From positions 558,001 to 622,000 of the forward strand of contig CM039004.1 of NCBI GenBank assembly GCA_017499595.2: 64,000 nucleotides of DNA. The letters are read 5' to 3'. Below are positions 34,340 to 64,000 of this stretch, piece after piece (position 1 is the first letter of the stretch; each line of letters begins with the position of its first letter). The notes below the pieces were generated by a model. That model was not told the origin of the DNA, did not search any database, and worked only from the letters and a program-made list of their open reading frames with translations. The translations under genes and the position numbers were made by a program. This DNA comes from Psilocybe cubensis (lineage: Eukaryota).

Positions 34340-36820
34340 TATCGTCGGTTAGGTATTAAAAATTAGGGGAAAGAAAGTCCAATGAAAGAGGATGATGATG
34401 CTGGGTGTACTTTTTTTCTTGCCTTATTATACTTTTACAATATCTACCTCACGGGGTCCATCCCTCGATGTCATCGACTTTCTCGTGGTGCGCGCTAAGT
34501 TGACACGTATCTATGACATTCTATGCCAAAGCTACTCCGTTCTTTGTCTATGATGATGATGATGATAGTGAAGCATGTACTCGACTCGGGAGGAGGCTCA
34601 TGCCATTTAGATAATACTGTCTGCACGCTCGACTTGGCATACACAACCTGTCATCAGGGGAGCCCTGCTAATGTTTCTTCCAAAATTAACAAAAGGATAG
34701 ACACGACTGCTCGCCAGTCATTGTTTCCACCTCGTTGTCAAATGTCTGTTTAGTAACTGTTGCCAGAAAACGTCGGTGTTATGGACGTTCAAGTCAAAAA
34801 ATTCAGAGCGCAGAGGTATTGACTCAGCTAGATTGACCTGTCGCATGCCGCTCGTACATATGACGTCGGAGATTTGAATTTGGACTTGAAGTCAAGGAAA
34901 AAGGCCTTCAGGGGAAATCCGCGATCATCAGAGAGATATTTCTAGTGCCCCTCACCGGCTTTTCCTGGAGGCGCTCGGATACGTCGGAAGACCATGACAT
35001 CGGGTCCGTTTACGGAACGATTATACACACATCAATGGTATATTCTTTGTAAATCCTGGTCGGTATCGGGCATGAGGGGTTCGTGGGAGGTCCACCACGT
35101 TCTGTCGTCCGACATATTCTGAAGAGATCTGGAAAAAAATGACGACTCGGCGCCAGCGGCAATATGACGAGAGGCTATGCTCGACCATTCCTCAAACGCG
35201 TAAATCACAATGACAATTTTTGTTAAACTTACAAGTCTGCCCTTGTGATCTTGTGATCCGCCTTTTTGATCGAAGGCAGTGTTTGCATGTATGACTCCTA
35301 ACGTCTGGGCCTACACATTCCATGGGGATAATCCCATTAGCGCCCGGCATGGTCGAAAATCCTCGAAATTACGCAAAATATGCTTCCCCGGTTGGATTAC
35401 ATCTGAATGCATTACTCAATTCAGAGGCACCGAGATGGCATTGCCCTCAACAAGTTACCGGATATAGGAAGGTCGAGATTAGTTTGCTATCTATTACAGC
35501 CTTTTTCTTGGCCTTTATCAATCGGGATAATATTGCGGGGCCGTTGGAGAGGAAGGTTTTGTATTCTTCAACACTGATGCGTTCATCGAAATAATAATTG
35601 AAACAAGTTTATACAATCGATGTGCACGATCATCGGAATGAAGTGCCGCCAATCAAGCATACTATCAGGAAGCCTTGGGGCTAATAAAGTAGGCAAAAGC
35701 AATGCATTCTCATGCTGCAGATTTACCTTTCATGATTGTTCGGCGTGATGTTTTGGCAAGCATCTCCAAATCCTCCATTTATGAGCTACCACCAGTAACC
35801 AAACTCAACCGCCTTAACCATTTCTTCAAGCGCTACTCAGGCTTTCAATGCACTCGCATAAGTTACCCGCACCGATCGAGTGTATTTTTGGTTTTTGGGT
35901 GTGGCTCGTCGATCGGAAATCCAGTGGAAATCCCTGTACTCCACCGCCTGTCTGCGCAGAGTATGTCGCCGTCGTAGCTCAAATACCACTGCGTCGTGGC
36001 AGAGCCACATATCAGCCGGTGGGCGCTATCTAAATTTGGCCGTGCTGCTCACGATAAACACTTTGGTTTTTGAAACCTGAGGAAGAACAACTTGAATTGC
36101 AGATGTCTTTGAGCGCAGTTGTATGTGTATCTCAACTGACTTCGAAGGATACAATCGTTCATTTCAATCACGTCCCTGAACCTCTTTGAATACAACCTAT
36201 TTCTGAAAAAGGTCCCACCCCCTTACAACGTCGGCGGTATGTTATGAGTGAAAGTTATTTTTAGCGCTCATTCATGCATTCAAAAGTTCCCACTAGACCG
36301 ATTGTTCAGGCGTTCCTCGTCAATTTCTATATATTGCCTTTGAGACGGGAAGTTGAACATTAAAAAGGGACGTAAGCAAGCGATTCATATCCAGGCTTTA
36401 ATCAAGCATCTTCGTCTCCCCCTGCCCCCCATAAGAAAACCGTCACAAACAAATAAGTAGATGGATAAGCTCGAAACAAACTTTTACCACTGCGCTATCA
36501 CATACCATGTACATATATCTCTACACTTTTTTTGTTTTATGTTATTGCCTCTGAGGGGAGAGCCCCTCCCTTGGCCTTGTACTGCGATGCTACCTATGGG
36601 CTCCCGGAGCCCCTACTGCTCTCCTTCGCTCACACTTGCATCCTAGAGGGCCCTCTTGTCCCCTACTGGATCCAATCCGTCCTAGGGTTGCTTAGTGCAA
36701 GGCCTCCGGCATTGTAGTGGGTAGTTTTCCCTTCTTACTCTCTTCTCATTTTTTTCTTCTTCTCTTGCACCTCTCGGGCCCGGGCGTCTTTTGATGTTCG
36801 TGTCCGCATTAGATTTTACC

Positions 36821-38752: not shown

Positions 38753-39019
38753 GATTTTACCCCTCCTCTTCGATCAATATAAGTAGTATGTCTTCTTTGT
38801 AGTATCGTAGTCTTTTCGTCCTTGCAATATATCTTACGAGGGCTTTTGCTTGCATGATGTGTTTGTCGTGAGTTCTTCGATGCTGGTGGTTCTCTTTTGT
38901 ATTTCTTCCCACATTTCTTCTTTCTTCTCCCTGTCCGCAGCACATTGAAAATGAAGTGTTCGACCATCTCAGTTGCTCGTGTTCCCACTCTACATTCTCT
39001 GCACATTGGGAGGTGCTTG

Positions 39020-39852
39020 TCGAAGGTGTGATCGAATTTGCTCAGGATACTAGCAGTGTACCCGTGCTTTGCACGGAAAGTTGGGAGGAAATTTACCAGG
39101 TTATTTTCCCAGTGTTTTTGCGAGAAAAGACGGAAGGTAATTTATCATGTTATTTCCCCAGTGTTCGAGGGCAGGTGGTTTGCGAAAAAAAAAGGCGCGG
39201 ACTGTCCGCCAGACTGACCGGCGGACAGTCTGCCGGACTTATAGGCCTTATAGTGAGCGAGCGTGACTGGGTTAGTGACAGCCGTGCACACTGTGCTCGA
39301 CAGCGATCAGTGCCCCTCCAACACACTACCGCCCTCCGCCCCCGAGCTGGCCTAGAGGATGTTCACCATTGTTTTGGCTGTATGAAGTTTTGGTATTTAT
39401 ATTACAGATTTATTTCTATGGGAGTACATGTGAATGACTGCATTGGGGTAGGAAAAACGCGTCCCTGACGCGTCCGAATAAACTTGTTCGCAAGTTGAAG
39501 TTGAGCCATCCAATATCCAAAAAAGCCACAATGCACCGAAGAAATTCTCACGTGTTTGGGGCAGCAGTGGAATACGCTACGAGCAATGTGCGCACCGTGT
39601 AGCGCATCAGGGGGCGGGCTATGTCCAGGAAGACTTTCATGAGCTCGCGACGTGGCTCGGACGTCACATCATGGTCACAAACACACAAGATACACCTTGA
39701 GTCCGGCGGACAGTCCGCCAGACTGTCCGCGCAAAAAAAACTCGTGGACGAACCTTTCTGCAGTGTTCAGGCCCGATTACAGTGTATTTCAGTCTCGATT
39801 ACAACGTTTTCAGGCATATTTCGAACTTTTTGGGTGATCGAAAAAGCAATCA
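39020..39852. mobile_element. Second non-coding insertion splitting the LINE ORF2 (boundaries approximate)
   Basis: Separates two normally adjacent ORF2 motifs (GHIPLN.H and CxxC..H...C); contains self-complementary GGCGGACAGTC/GACTGTCCGCC repeat blocks at ~39195-39240 and ~39700-39732. Confidence 0.55.
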
Positions 39853-40204
39853 TGTTGCTTTGATGATATTGATGGGAATTTAGCGGTATGTGGCCGGTGC
39901 GCGAAGTTGGATGCGCACGCCGCTCGCTTGTGCCCTATCGAGTTTGTGCGCCGTATTCCTGAACTTTGTGAATGTCAATTCTCTGTCTATTTTTTTCTCC
40001 TCGAATACTTTCTTTCTTCTGGAATCTATACACTACGTAAGGTAAAAGAACCAATTAAGAAACGATATGTTTCTTAATCACGGACAGTATATATACAGCA
40101 GAAACGGTAGTATAGTAAGGCAGCAGGCTTACACACTGCGCCAAATTTACCCCAGCTTAGAACCCCATCTTCTGATAGGACCCTGGCACCAATGGCTGCA
40201 TGAT

Positions 40205-58911: not shown

Positions 58912-61223
58912 ATGCATCTTCTCAAAGGCCTCATAGCCCTTGGATGGGTACTTCAAGCCTACGCTGTTGCAATAGGTCCGACCACCAATTTGGTTATCGG
59001 AAATCAAGTCATAGCTCCTGATGGACTTAGGCGCTCGTAAGTTATTTACAATATTTTCCGAGTTAATTTGTTCTGATCACTCTGATTCACAGAGCCGTGT
59101 TGGCTGGAGCCTCAGCCAGCACTCTATCCTTCCCCGGACCTGTAATTCGGGCTACAAAGGTGTGTTGGTTGATGTGTTGTGATGTGGCGAGCAATAAATT
59201 CACAGTGTGCATTTTACTAGGGTGATACGTTGCAGGTGAACGTCATAGATCAATTGACGGATACTAGCATGTTGACTGGAACGAGTATTGTAAGTGTTAT
59301 TAAATGATTGTTGCCTACATATTGGCCAATATTTCTATAGCACTGGCACGGCATTCACCAAAAAGGAACCAGTTGGGCAGATGGCGTTGTTGGCGTGACT
59401 CAATGCCCAATTGCTCCTGGCAAGTCTTTCCTGTATAAATTTCCTACAGCCGAGCAAGCTGGGACTTTCTGGTACCATTCCCACTATTGTGCGTATAAAC
59501 TCAGGATATTGTTGTAATGCTTCTAACAAAATTCTTATATAGCTACTCAATATTGCGACGGCCTTAGAGGAGCTTTGATTGTTTACGATCCAGAGGATCC
59601 CTACCGAACTTGGTGAGACTATCGACCATCATTCTAGAATATACTGATTTTTTAACATTCCTTTGTAGGTATGACATTGATGATGGTATGTCGTCCACCT
59701 ACTGGGAGTCGTTGATAATTCAATTCATATTCAAATGCTTGCCGCAGAATCGACAGTGATTACCCTTGCAGATTGGTGAGTCCACAAAATTTGAACAACC
59801 TAAGCATAATTTCATATCCGTTTCCTCAAAACTCAGGTATCACAAAGTTGCTCATTTAGAGCCTATCCCTACTGAAGCAGACGCTACTTTGATCAACGGA
59901 AAGGGTCGCTATCCTGGCGGTCCTGCTTCGCCCCTGTCGGTTATTAATGTGGTTCCCAACAAGCGTTATCGTTTCCGTTTGGTCTCAATGTCGTGCGATC
60001 CTGCATTTACTTTCTCAATTGACGGACACCCCCTGGCAAGTATTTCTTAAAATTAACATATAACCCATACACTTATTATTTTGATAGACTGTTATCGAGG
60101 CCGACTCTCAGAGCGTACAACCTCTTACGGTTAACGAAATTACCATCTACGCAGGCCAAAGGTATTCCTTTGTTCTCTATGCCAACAACCCCGTCGGAAA
60201 CTACTGGATCCGAGCACTTCCCGATGAAGATGGTCCTTCTAAAGATCTATTTAAGAATGGAATCAATTCTGCCATCCTCCGTTACAGTGGTGCACCAGCT
60301 GTCGACCCAACAACACAGAAAGCATCTCCTGCCAATCCACTAGTTGAGGCAAATCTGCGACCTCTCTACAATCCTGCCGCTCCAGGTGTTCCTTCCCCAG
60401 GAAAAGCCGACGTCAACCTCAAGATAGGCATCACTTTCAACAATACAACCAGCAAGTTTTTTGTCAATAATGCCACCTTCACGGAAGTCAAAGTTCCAGT
60501 ATTGCTCCAAATTCTTAGCAAGAAATACCAGCCCAATCAGCTTCTCCCTGCCGGATCAGTATACACTCTCCCTCCTAACAAAGTCATAGAAATATCTATG
60601 CCTGGTGGGAGTACTGGAAGCCCGGTAAGCTTCTCTCTGCTCATGTATATTGTTTCCTCTCTCTTACTTGGCGCTTGTAGCATCCTATGCATCTGCACGG
60701 CGTACGATACTGATTTTTAGTATGGCAGACTTGACACTGACTACTCTCTGTAGCATGATTTCTACGTCGTGAGAAGCGCCGGCAGCTCACAATACAATTA
60801 TGTAAATCCTGTCAGGCGCGACGTCGTTAACATAGGCCGAAACCTCACGGATAACGTTACCATACGTTTCAAGACTGATAACTCTGGCCCATGGATCCTA
60901 CATTGGTAAGTCTACAAATAATACTATACTGTCCACCTGTTCATACACTAACGAGCGCACATCAGCCACATAGACTGGCATCTTGAAGCGTAAGTATCCA
61001 AACTCATTTTCATCCGGTGACTAGTATAACTAAAAAGACACGTATTCTCCAGCGGTTTGGCCGTGGTTTTCGCAGAGGATTTCGCATCTATTCAACTCAG
61101 CAAGCCTCCTCGTATGCATTTATTTATATGTTCCCTGATATATTGACTAAGTCCGTCTGTCTAGCGGCTTGGGATCAACTTTGCCCTACCTTCGACGCTT
61201 TACCTCCCCAAAAATTCACCTGA
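58912..61223 (+). CDS. Laccase (AA1_1), PsiL-like paralogue B
   Basis: [23 protein letters not shown]...; all four copper motifs intact; [25 protein letters not shown] ~58850. Confidence 0.95.
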
Positions 61224-63066
61224 TCAACATATTTGATCGGGGCTTGGGGTCTACCATTGATGAATAGGGTCTATGGTTAGCAATAATATCAAGTGTACCG
61301 TGTACCAAGTGTTCAAGTTTGACTCGACCTAGTGAATTGTTTGTTACTGTGCTTTGAATATATCTTCGTACAAATGTTAAGCAAGTTCTTTGCAGTCCAT
61401 TCATTTTGCATAGTAGCCGCAAGAATGAACTTAGCTCACGGACTGACCAACAATCAGCGTTAGAAACTAGACGTTTTTCTGAATTTCCGATGTAGAATAT
61501 GCTACTCGCTTCACTCATTTCGCGCACCCTACGCAGGCGATCAGCGAAATCGTTGTGTTTTCCGCGTGTTGGCACCTGGATGGGGGTGGATGGTTGTAAG
61601 AGCATGATAAGGAAAAGGGCTTGTATACGACTATGACACACCACGCCAACATCGTGCCTAAGAGGGAGCAGAATACACTGCTCACATCAATTGACACTAC
61701 ATGATGGTTCAATGATGAGCTAGGAAAAGAACGGCAGAAGGCGCTCAGACCAATCCATCCCTGTCACCATATTGGATGCTATAAACACCGCCAGGTACGT
61801 CTTAGACTGACGAACAGCACACTGGCAAGCCTTACCTCATTTCCACCCACATTGACCGCGGAGAAACATCTAGGAGCCCCATCATAGTCTGCAGAAATGA
61901 CAGCCGAAAGTGGTGGGGGATTATATGAATGATAGGGTGTGCATAAGTATGAGTGAGCATTGGGATATGCTACTCCTGGTTGGTATCTTTCAGGTTGAGA
62001 ACACTCATGATCCTTCAGCTGGCAGTGACTGTACCGAAAGTAAAGAAGGTTTAATTATCACTCACGGAATTTGTAGGTGTCCCTTTGTACGTTTCCCCTA
62101 TCAAACTATTCCCCTCCCTCCATACTCATTCCATCTCTTTGCGGTTGGCTTTGCTTCGTCGGTGGTGGGAGGGCGGTCGTTGACGTAGAGTCAACAAAAA
62201 AATACGACACACAACAGGTCACGCGCTGTCGGTCTATTTCAAATTCCGAACGATCACTATTGTAGCAAAAACTCCTCATCTACCAAAAATGGCACCCTTG
62301 ATCAACGAAGCCGACGGCGGATGCCGTCTAAACGACGCCCTACCCAAACCTATGATGAAGTTGGTCTGTTGTGTTACGGTAGAGGGATAGATAGAGGGAT
62401 ACTATACTAGGTTGTGAGAAATTGGATTCCGTGTATTTACTTTATGAAATGAACTCGCATCTTGCTAAACTAATGGATACAAAATGGATATGGTATCTCA
62501 TGAATCTGGGGCACATTCAGGACCATAACCTAAATAGACATGTGGAATACGTACAGAGTAATGCTCAAGAGGTTATTTTGGACACCTGAGAGTCAAGGAA
62601 GGTAGATTATGCCTGCAATACATGTTTACATTTAAAAACTAGAAGAAAGTAAGATTGCGATTGGGTGTAGAAAAGCTTGATGTAATACTGGAATAGCCTG
62701 AATACTTGTTAAAGGGTGAGCAGCAAGGCGTTGTGTAAAACTAAAGTTCAAGTCATGAGTAAAGTAGCAAAGGAGCTCAGAATCGCATTATACTTACCTA
62801 GTCAGACAAAAGTTGTAGGTGAACTGTAATTGCGATCAAGAACTGAAGCAAATTAAAGAACAAGGGGGAAAAGAAGGTACATTCATACCAACTCAAGTCA
62901 AAGTACCGATACATCGTTGCTATTCATACCAATGTTCCGCTGAAGCCATGGAAAAGATCGGTCATTAAATGTGCCGTTGTGCCTAGACCCCAATTCTCGT
63001 TAAACTGCCTGGTAGTATACTCGTATAAAAGGCTTGCTACAAAGATGTTCCTTTGCAAGTTTCAAG

Positions 63067-63515
63067 ATGAATTTTCTTCTAAGCATCGCTACCCTTGGAC
63101 TGGGACTTCAAGCCTATGCTGTCATGATAGGTCCCTCCGCGACTTTGGTTATCGGAAACAAAAACATAGCTCCCGACGGAATTAAGCGCTCGTAACTTGA
63201 CCTTTTATTTTGTTACTCGTTTTGTTCTAAACAATCGCAGGGCTGTTTTAGCTGGAACTTCACTGGACACTCTATCTTTCCCCGGACCTGTAATTCGGGC
63301 CACAAAGGTACGTAAATTAATGGCTATTGCAATTTCATGAGTGGGAAACCGAGTGTACAATTTCTCAGGGCGACACGCTGAGCTTGAACGTCGTCAATCA
63401 GTTAACTGATGCCACTATGCTGATGGGCACGAGCATCGTGAGTACCTTTGTCTAGCCCTCATTATATTTCTTGAAGGTTTCTTCAGCATTGGCATGGTTT
63501 TCATCAAAAAGGAAC
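63067..63515 (+). pseudogene. psiL: Laccase (probably psilocin-oxidising PsiL), exons 1-4, disrupted by a retroelement
   Basis: [97 protein letters not shown]; the paralogues continue SWADG, whereas this gene runs into T12 and stops at TAG 63571-63573; symbol from recalled PsiL N-terminus. Confidence 0.75.
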
Positions 63516-64000
63516 TTTTTTTTTTTTATTTTATGTTATAGCCTCTGAGGGGTGGGCCCCTCCCTTGGCTTAGTACTACCATTACAGTTTCTCTATATAG
63601 GTTGTAATCCTACTGTTCCATGTGTACTGTGTAAAGGAATAAGAAGTGTTGCTTATGAGAGATTACTAACATTTATTGCGGCGTGGTGTTTTCTGCGTGG
63701 GGTGCTGGAGTTGGAGTTGAAGGTTGAGGTTTCCTCTTCCGCTCCCGATATCGAGAGACTCGACACCAGGAGCCAAAGAGAAAAATGCCAGAGTGATAGA
63801 GCCGTTCTGTGATGTTCTTGTCTTCAAACCTAATGAGAATAGAAAGTCGGTCCTTCTGGAACTCCTCCCCATCGCGACAAAGAGCCCGTATTTGCCCTCG
63901 GATATCCTGCCTAGATACCCCTGCCTCATTTTCAAGTAATGACCATATGCTGTTTTTTGGAGTGGCGGAGTCGAAAGAGTCGCGAAGTGAATCGGCTGGG
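63516..64000 (-). mobile_element. Poly(A)-tailed non-LTR retroelement (3' end), antisense in the laccase exon; terminal ORF is ORF1/gag-like
   Basis: T12 at 63516-63527; 3' hairpin GAGGGG-N4-CCCCTC; open frame 63999-63673 (108 aa, not in the ORF track): ...KDRLSILIRFEDKNITERLYHSGIFLFGSWCRVSRYRERKRKPQ...*. Confidence 0.85.

Follow-up and report, generated by a model that had tools for sequence, protein, structure and literature searches.

The window analysed here (64,000 nucleotides of Psilocybe cubensis, G000:C7:558001-622000) ends within a laccase gene that is interrupted, shortly before the last letter, by an A-rich stretch followed by a reading frame on the opposite strand. What interrupts this gene, and which enzymes could have brought it there? 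The initial annotation proposed a non-autonomous retroelement that carries only an ORF1, is comparable to HAL1 and is mobilised in trans. The explanation that we consider highly probable is that of an ORF1-only non-LTR retroelement (a 'half-LINE') moving by TPRT with the ORF2 protein of a co-resident LINE. The features of the window that enter the argument are the following:

63067..63516, + strand: 5' part of a laccase (multicopper oxidase) gene, known from the sequence and from the spliced intact form in run X2
63505..63516, no strand: left copy of the 12-bp target-site duplication (right copy, L031:2513-2524)
63516..63532, - strand: A-rich 3' tail of the element, A12 preceded by a short templated A-rich stretch
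63528..63573, - strand: LINE-like 3'-terminal 46 nt of the element, from identity to LINE ends, single-strand folds and pair counts
63533..63672, - strand: 3' UTR of the element, about 140 nt, LINE-like in its last part only
63673..64000, - strand: residues 337-444 of the ORF and its stop, with the second RRM-like domain and a basic/Pro-rich end
36527..36583, - strand: 3' tail of a LINE relic, of the same type as the element's (match L029, relic translations)

Of the retroelement, which measures 1,495 bp and lies between 12-bp duplications in a laccase exon, the window shows the 3' third; the whole, read past the window end, occupies L031:1018-2512 (G000:C7:621517-623011). The final T of the left duplication copy is indistinguishable from the adjoining T run. 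The break falls within the exon encoding the first copper-binding His motif, and the remainder of the gene continues from L031:2513 onward, past the window, where its downstream part is recognised as a Cu-oxidase (Pfam, E = 2e-16). Two tandem laccase paralogues are present on the + strand (about 59800-61225 and 63067 onward), the second being the one disrupted in the assembly. Also outside the window, an ORF at L031:6224-6928 (+) starts with a signal-peptide-like segment and continues with Gly/Asn-rich repeats spaced by basic-residue plus EPEPEP motifs; from this resemblance it is presumably a KEX2-processed repeat precursor. The frame that had been described as uninterrupted for 108 codons is open on the minus strand from 63673 to 63999, at the window end, and codes for the C-terminal 108 residues of the only ORF of the element, which is 444 aa long and starts about 1,007 nt outside the window end. 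Its distance to the poly(A), previously given as about 145 nt, is about 140 nt when measured to the A-rich tail. The end of the ORF is as had been read: it contains no ORF2 end motifs and terminates in a basic, Pro/Thr-rich segment and a stop, with no knuckle. Neither RT, endonuclease nor knuckle was detected in the 444 residues with Pfam, and the whole element is devoid of RT and endonuclease, in keeping with the ORF1-only proposal. The ATG lies 4 nt from the 5' junction; the next Met is residue 151.

The element is repeated in the genome (46.6 Mb in 21 contigs were searched). The 485 bases visible in the window have at least 33 matches, 24 of them confined to the final 50-70 nt; at least eight loci match at 90-100% identity, and the element is thus not a one-off, single-copy deletion derivative, an outcome that the initial annotation had named as fatal to its proposal. 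The young loci, at least eight, are 91-100% identical, and at least two others are older. Three young loci are complete with an open ORF (1 and 15 substitutions relative to the window copy), whereas two others contain stops, a third has an internal duplication, a nested LINE splits a fourth and the fifth is truncated at the 5' end. In the seven young loci where both ends are present, the flanking duplications measure 12, 13, 12, 10, 9, 11 and 12 bp. The signs of TPRT are hence an A-tail, whose A-run varies in length among copies, duplications of 9-13 bp, one 5'-truncated copy and an empty site. Upstream of the ATG, six of these seven loci have 1-4 extra nucleotides, mostly G, and the seventh has 20 that fold back. 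The latter (L036:7358-7378, the G000:C3 copy) include an inverted copy of the first bases of the element, which resembles a fold-back during second-strand synthesis. The copies of the assembly are dispersed at interior positions with unique flanks. The two older loci, both on C5, are 67-76% alike; in this subfamily (L065:2928-5903 and L066:2714-5192) each copy is interrupted by an insertion with inverted ends, and the L065 copy has an 11-12-bp duplication and a much shorter 3' UTR, in which the right half of the LINE-like hairpin is kept and the left half is missing. A triple nesting was also observed at L033:1043-9901 and L064:1-6590 (G000:C11:1220642-1234586), where a half-LINE is split by an opposite-strand full LINE, in turn interrupted by a Ty3-like element.

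The suspected recent transposition was confirmed by the comparison with four of five listed sequencing runs. The laccase site is empty in three of them, X2, X3 and X4, from two studies; the fourth, X1, has no coverage of the site. The empty-site joint (1005->2513) skips 1,507 positions, that is, 1,495 plus 12, and 12 letters fit both sides. In run X2 the laccase is found with its GT-AG introns removed, so the uninterrupted allele is spliced. Moreover, the runs contain four flanks joined to the 5' end of the element, none of which corresponds to any of the seven 5' flanks present in the assembly. The element is young, polymorphic and recently moved. The RNA-type contigs that cover it derive from a copy in which the first ~13 nt are missing, and they extend into a foreign flank; they are therefore no sign of a promoter or of transcription of its own, and the X2 element contig is uninformative on transcript start, strand and level.

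The protein was studied together with its relatives. Its model (mean pLDDT 74.9, >90 through most of the core) predicts a basic disordered N-terminus, a pair of helices (112-139 and 148-161) and two RRM-like domains, one at about 226-325 and the other at about 327-422. The best Foldseek matches are tandem RRM proteins (top E 1e-6), and in the structure comparison the best hit (Z 8.7, rmsd 2.9, 80 aligned residues) is accompanied by many ties at the top, with human L1 ORF1p at rank 48 (Z 6.4) amid generic RRMs. The modelled ORF1 of the resident LINE also matches tandem-RRM proteins; its strands and helices come in the same order, with knuckles after them. In profile comparisons by hhalign (E 4e-6 and 1.5e-6, probability 87-90), about 150 columns of the family align with LINE ORF1, at an identity of 16-17%, and the alignment stops directly ahead of the first knuckle. 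The core HMM gives scores of 21.5 and 19.2 bits, the highest among 1,100 shuffles being 8.2; 4 of the 11 LINE ORF1s score above the best shuffle and 7 do not. These 7, the low identity and the commonness of the RRM fold count against the homology. BLASTP of the family ORF against the LINE ORF1s, including that of the LINE that shares its tail, returned no significant match. From these comparisons, the 444-aa protein is a remote homologue of LINE ORF1 without knuckles, in line with the RRM-like ORF1 segment that had been pointed out in its visible part: the quoted segment is present, and the homology extends up to the knuckle position.

The relatives fall in 121 clusters at 50% identity, the named ones coming from Cyclocybe, Flammula, Pholiota and Mycena, and a database protein labelled Psilocybe cubensis is the product of a diverged copy of the element. 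No strict CCHC knuckle occurs in any of the 134 family proteins; 97 of them extend to the end of the profile, and 94 of these terminate within 40 residues. Pfam gave nothing meaningful for the ORF and 54 family members; DUF2103, below the cut-off in one of the 54, was rejected. Matches to DUF4780, PRE_C2HC and zf-CCHC clusters in the ESM Atlas have scores below 0.9 and are leads at most. Three database proteins (P0016, P0036 and P0100) join the family ORF to unrelated fungal sequence, probably through gene-calling across inserted copies.

A tandem-RRM fold that resembles host splicing factors, together with the purifying selection described below, could also be expected from a domesticated host RNA-binding gene, or from processed pseudogenes of one, copied by LINE machinery. 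Nevertheless, no intron-bearing or syntenic parent exists among the genome matches, the complete copies each have flanks and a duplication of their own, many copies are dead, and the elements bear a LINE tail and an ORF collinear with LINE ORF1. A host origin, and with it the processed pseudogene that the initial annotation had kept as an alternative, is largely refuted and in our view barely credible.

If the half-LINE carries no enzyme of its own, its partner may be sought among the sequences that match its 3' end. At least 12 of the 22 matches that were inspected have ORF2-end frames upstream, and the others resemble short LINE ends. Two intact LINEs (6.06 kb, 99.95% identical to each other) have the same tail as the element and encode an ORF1 of 547 aa with knuckles and an ORF2 of 1,315 aa with APE, RT and RNase H; this APE-RT-RNase H-CCHC layout with a knuckled ORF1 fits the Tad1 clade, to which the LINE may belong. 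Five LINE copies are flanked by duplications of 12, 12, 12, 12 and 9 bp, similar in length to those of the element. The last 46 nt of the element are identical to eight LINE ends at 40-43 of 46 positions (87-93%), whereas further upstream (48-88 nt) the identity drops to 6-13 of 40, the level of chance. Because only these last ~46 nt are common to both and BLASTP finds no match to the ORF1 of the resident LINE, the element is no simple deletion derivative of it. The co-resident 6-kb APE-RT-RNaseH LINEs are the likely trans partner, judging from the shared end. The window holds the remains of such a LINE on the - strand, in at least three separated pieces (36500-36700, 38770-39140 and 39800-39990) with the 3' UTR and tail at 36.5-36.7 kb; the ORF2 end motifs that had been noticed at 38.8-40 kb are indeed there, scattered over frameshifts. 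This relic is a candidate dead copy of the partner family.

The accessible text of PMC3747384 describes stringent LINE partners as marked by common structured 3' ends, and the 46-nt tail is a probable RT recognition signal of this kind. In most single-strand folds it forms an outer stem, an internal loop and an inner hairpin. The tail alignment A4 leaves out L083 and L103. Across families the proportion of cells that pair is 80.7%, and a change on both sides is seen in one outer pair; the covariation score, 0.251, is nearly unchanged after a one-column slide (0.235), and RNAalifold gave no consensus structure of the tail, only two pairs at about zero energy. A structure common to the tail types is thus only modestly supported.

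Another scenario is that the element is indeed non-autonomous, but is carried by another RT, or by any, through its poly(A) alone, in a relaxed, L1-like manner, the tail being a relic of its origin. The genome does contain a second, diverged LINE family (L133:3673-9724 and L134) with a 670-codon ORF1 frame and a different 3' end, absent among the tail matches, and its ORF1 scores 19.2 bits against the family profile, nearly equal to the ORF1 of the tail-sharing LINE. Yet the tail is 87-93% identical to LINE tails in an element whose ORF has diverged past BLASTP detection and whose upstream UTR is at chance level, and a neutral relic would not persist through such divergence of the ORF; a recognised tail is therefore preferred and transport by poly(A) alone appears very improbable.

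The family could alternatively derive from an undiscovered autonomous LINE with a naturally knuckle-less ORF1, of which the 1.5-kb form would be a recurrent deletion or early-polyadenylated derivative. Repeated ORF2 loss is reported for Drosophila telomeric elements (bioRxiv 2025.06.09.658640, in the part available). Against this, all 18 of the tblastn matches recovered from the genome (at least 18) lie within short copies, and the matches with three divergent relatives do so as well, bar one weak extra. A search for copies with endonuclease or RT, which had been recommended from the start, found none among the genome matches, and tblastn found no ORF2 in any of 40 metagenome loci. These loci were picked by two peptide patterns and so sample the closer part of the family; in 24 of them a tail or poly(A) follows at most ~450 nt after the stop (21 with one of three tail types, three more with poly(A) after another tail), and the other 16, a point in favour of a hidden autonomous form, have no tail in view, mostly at contig ends. 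Duplications of 12-14 letters, including 1-3 A's common to the tail, flank 8 of the 11 testable loci, compared with 2 of 110 cross pairs. The ORF1-only layout also recurs across many branches of the tree. An autonomous knuckle-less LINE is therefore quite unlikely, and a half-LINE family that is an old lineage, propagating as such in gilled mushrooms rather than a recent deletion product, is part of the explanation that we hold highly probable.

Elements with the same tail type fall together on the ORF tree, where the window element groups with the three type-A relatives (100/99). Patterns for types B and C gave, respectively, one match, no more than the control, and none in this genome, and no match in viral contigs; that no partner emerged for these two types counts against the explanation. 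A tree of cores splits 52 family members from 6 LINEs; it is biased, as the family was selected by likeness to the query, and is usable only for depth. Over conserved columns, the 17 of 105 pairs with dS of 0.3-2 have a median dN/dS of 0.26 (maximum 0.37), figures that come from relatives, the pairs with the window element being saturated in dS; from these codon comparisons the family ORF is under purifying selection.

At the 5' end, a DNA motif at the ATG is common to 33 of the 40 loci. One extra base after the ATG places it in another frame in seven loci, yet in four of them that ATG opens an ORF of 386-435 codons. Because it is kept in two reading frames, the motif would be a nucleic-acid signal, probably for transcription, and the first ATG would be the start codon. 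Four 5' ends of LINEs (L058, L059, L057 and L033) have, ~40 nt in, an 11-nt stretch one base off this head motif; it is possibly a promoter element in common with the half-LINE, or a product of chance.

Taken together, the element would be transcribed from its own 5' end under a cis-signal that overlaps the first codons, and the nearly leaderless RNA, with its ATG at +2 to +5, would be translated into the 444-aa protein, with its basic disordered N-terminus, conserved helix pair, two predicted RRM-like domains and no zinc knuckles. By analogy with LINE ORF1 proteins, it would coat and chaperone its own RNA in cis, a role that would explain the purifying selection on the ORF. The endonuclease/RT of the partner would recognise the common 3' stem-loop and A-tail, nick the target and copy the RNA, which would result in the target duplications of 9-13 bp.

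The comparison with HAL1, whose primary description is reportedly that of Bao and Jurka (2010), holds in part. ORF1-only derivatives of LINEs are an established class, with HAL1 from L1, HeT-A from Jockey and Ag-Sponge from CR1 (PMC5786205, PMC5753468 and bioRxiv 2025.06.09.658640, in their accessible portions), and the element has the features of this class: a single ORF homologous to ORF1, neither RT nor endonuclease, amplification as a unit by TPRT and a 3' end shared with a LINE. Like HAL1, as far as the available text of PMC5753468 and PMC5786205 describes it, it is a non-autonomous LINE derivative with only an ORF1p, a poly(A), variable duplications and mobilisation in trans (which here would follow from the shared tail). 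HAL1 comes, however, from the L1 clade, whereas the tail-sharing LINE here has an RNase H and a zinc-knuckle ORF1, the ORF1 of the element lacks knuckles and is past BLASTP reach of its partner's, and only a 46-nt tail is in common; the element is thus HAL1-like in its class and not HAL1, as it does not derive from L1.

HeT-A, the other telomeric Jockey elements and Ag-Sponge are likewise ORF1-only and depend on the ORF2 of another family, and such lineages can spawn new ORF1-only families (PMC5786205 and bioRxiv 2025.06.09.658640, portions available). An identity with HeT-A was rejected, since HeT-A forms telomere-targeted head-to-tail arrays and the insertions here occupy dispersed sites, including an exon. 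HeT-A keeps knuckles and long UTRs, whereas the element has almost no 5' UTR and a 3' UTR of 140 nt. The Mg-SINE/MGL stringent pair is similar in that only a 3' end with a stem-loop is common to the SINE and its partner LINE (PMC3747384, accessible part). SINEs, however, have a small-RNA head and are non-coding, whereas the head here is the start of a conserved 444-aa ORF; this coding head and the purifying selection in relatives rule out a SINE. Among fungi, the same part of PMC3747384 tabulates HaTad1-3 and HaTad1-5 of Blumeria graminis next to Tad1-24_BG, among elements whose 3' end is also that of a fungal SINE. Their Repbase names may mean 'half Tad1' and may indicate a fungal precedent; the host is an ascomycete, the likeness lies in the name, and the accessible parts of PMC4455052, PMC10648671 and PMC3472496 contain no description. 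MarorLINE-6 of the agaric Marasmius oreades is an active RT-less LINE-type family proposed to use the RT of MarorLINE-5 (PMC9674265, portion available); it differs in its assignment to Inkcap, in a sequence like that of its partner, and in that it was found to have no protein domains and no ORF1 is reported for it. No account of ORF1-only elements of mushrooms was found in the literature searched, Repbase and most subscription journals being outside its reach, and PMC2881922 and bioRxiv 2025.06.16.659975 add nothing further on such elements in the parts available. What is distinctive in the present case is the loss of knuckles throughout the lineage, an ORF1 deeply diverged from that of the partner beside a near-identical tail, and the leaderless head.

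A wider reading, which we regard as evenly balanced when all its parts are taken jointly, is that of an ancient lineage of coding retro-parasites of gilled mushrooms that would have lost ORF2 and the knuckles once, kept a tandem-RRM chaperone under selection, housed its promoter within the opening codons of a leaderless mRNA, and followed or changed partner LINEs by altering only the ~46-nt 3' stem-loop; it would amount to a SINE-like tail on a coding body. Annotation based on RT overlooks such elements, and gene callers enter them as hypothetical proteins, as in the Cyclocybe, Flammula, Pholiota, Mycena and Psilocybe records. In P. cubensis, one of them has disrupted a laccase allele. For the family, the finding means that knuckles can be dispensable in this type of ORF1, and it bears on a puzzle common to ORF1-only elements, namely why they keep an ORF1p of their own while borrowing ORF2p. 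A 1.5-kb element, an intact 6-kb LINE and their common 46-nt tail make up a compact and currently moving pair in a culturable fungus, in which the need for ORF1, the need for knuckles and the recognition of the tail can be separated experimentally.
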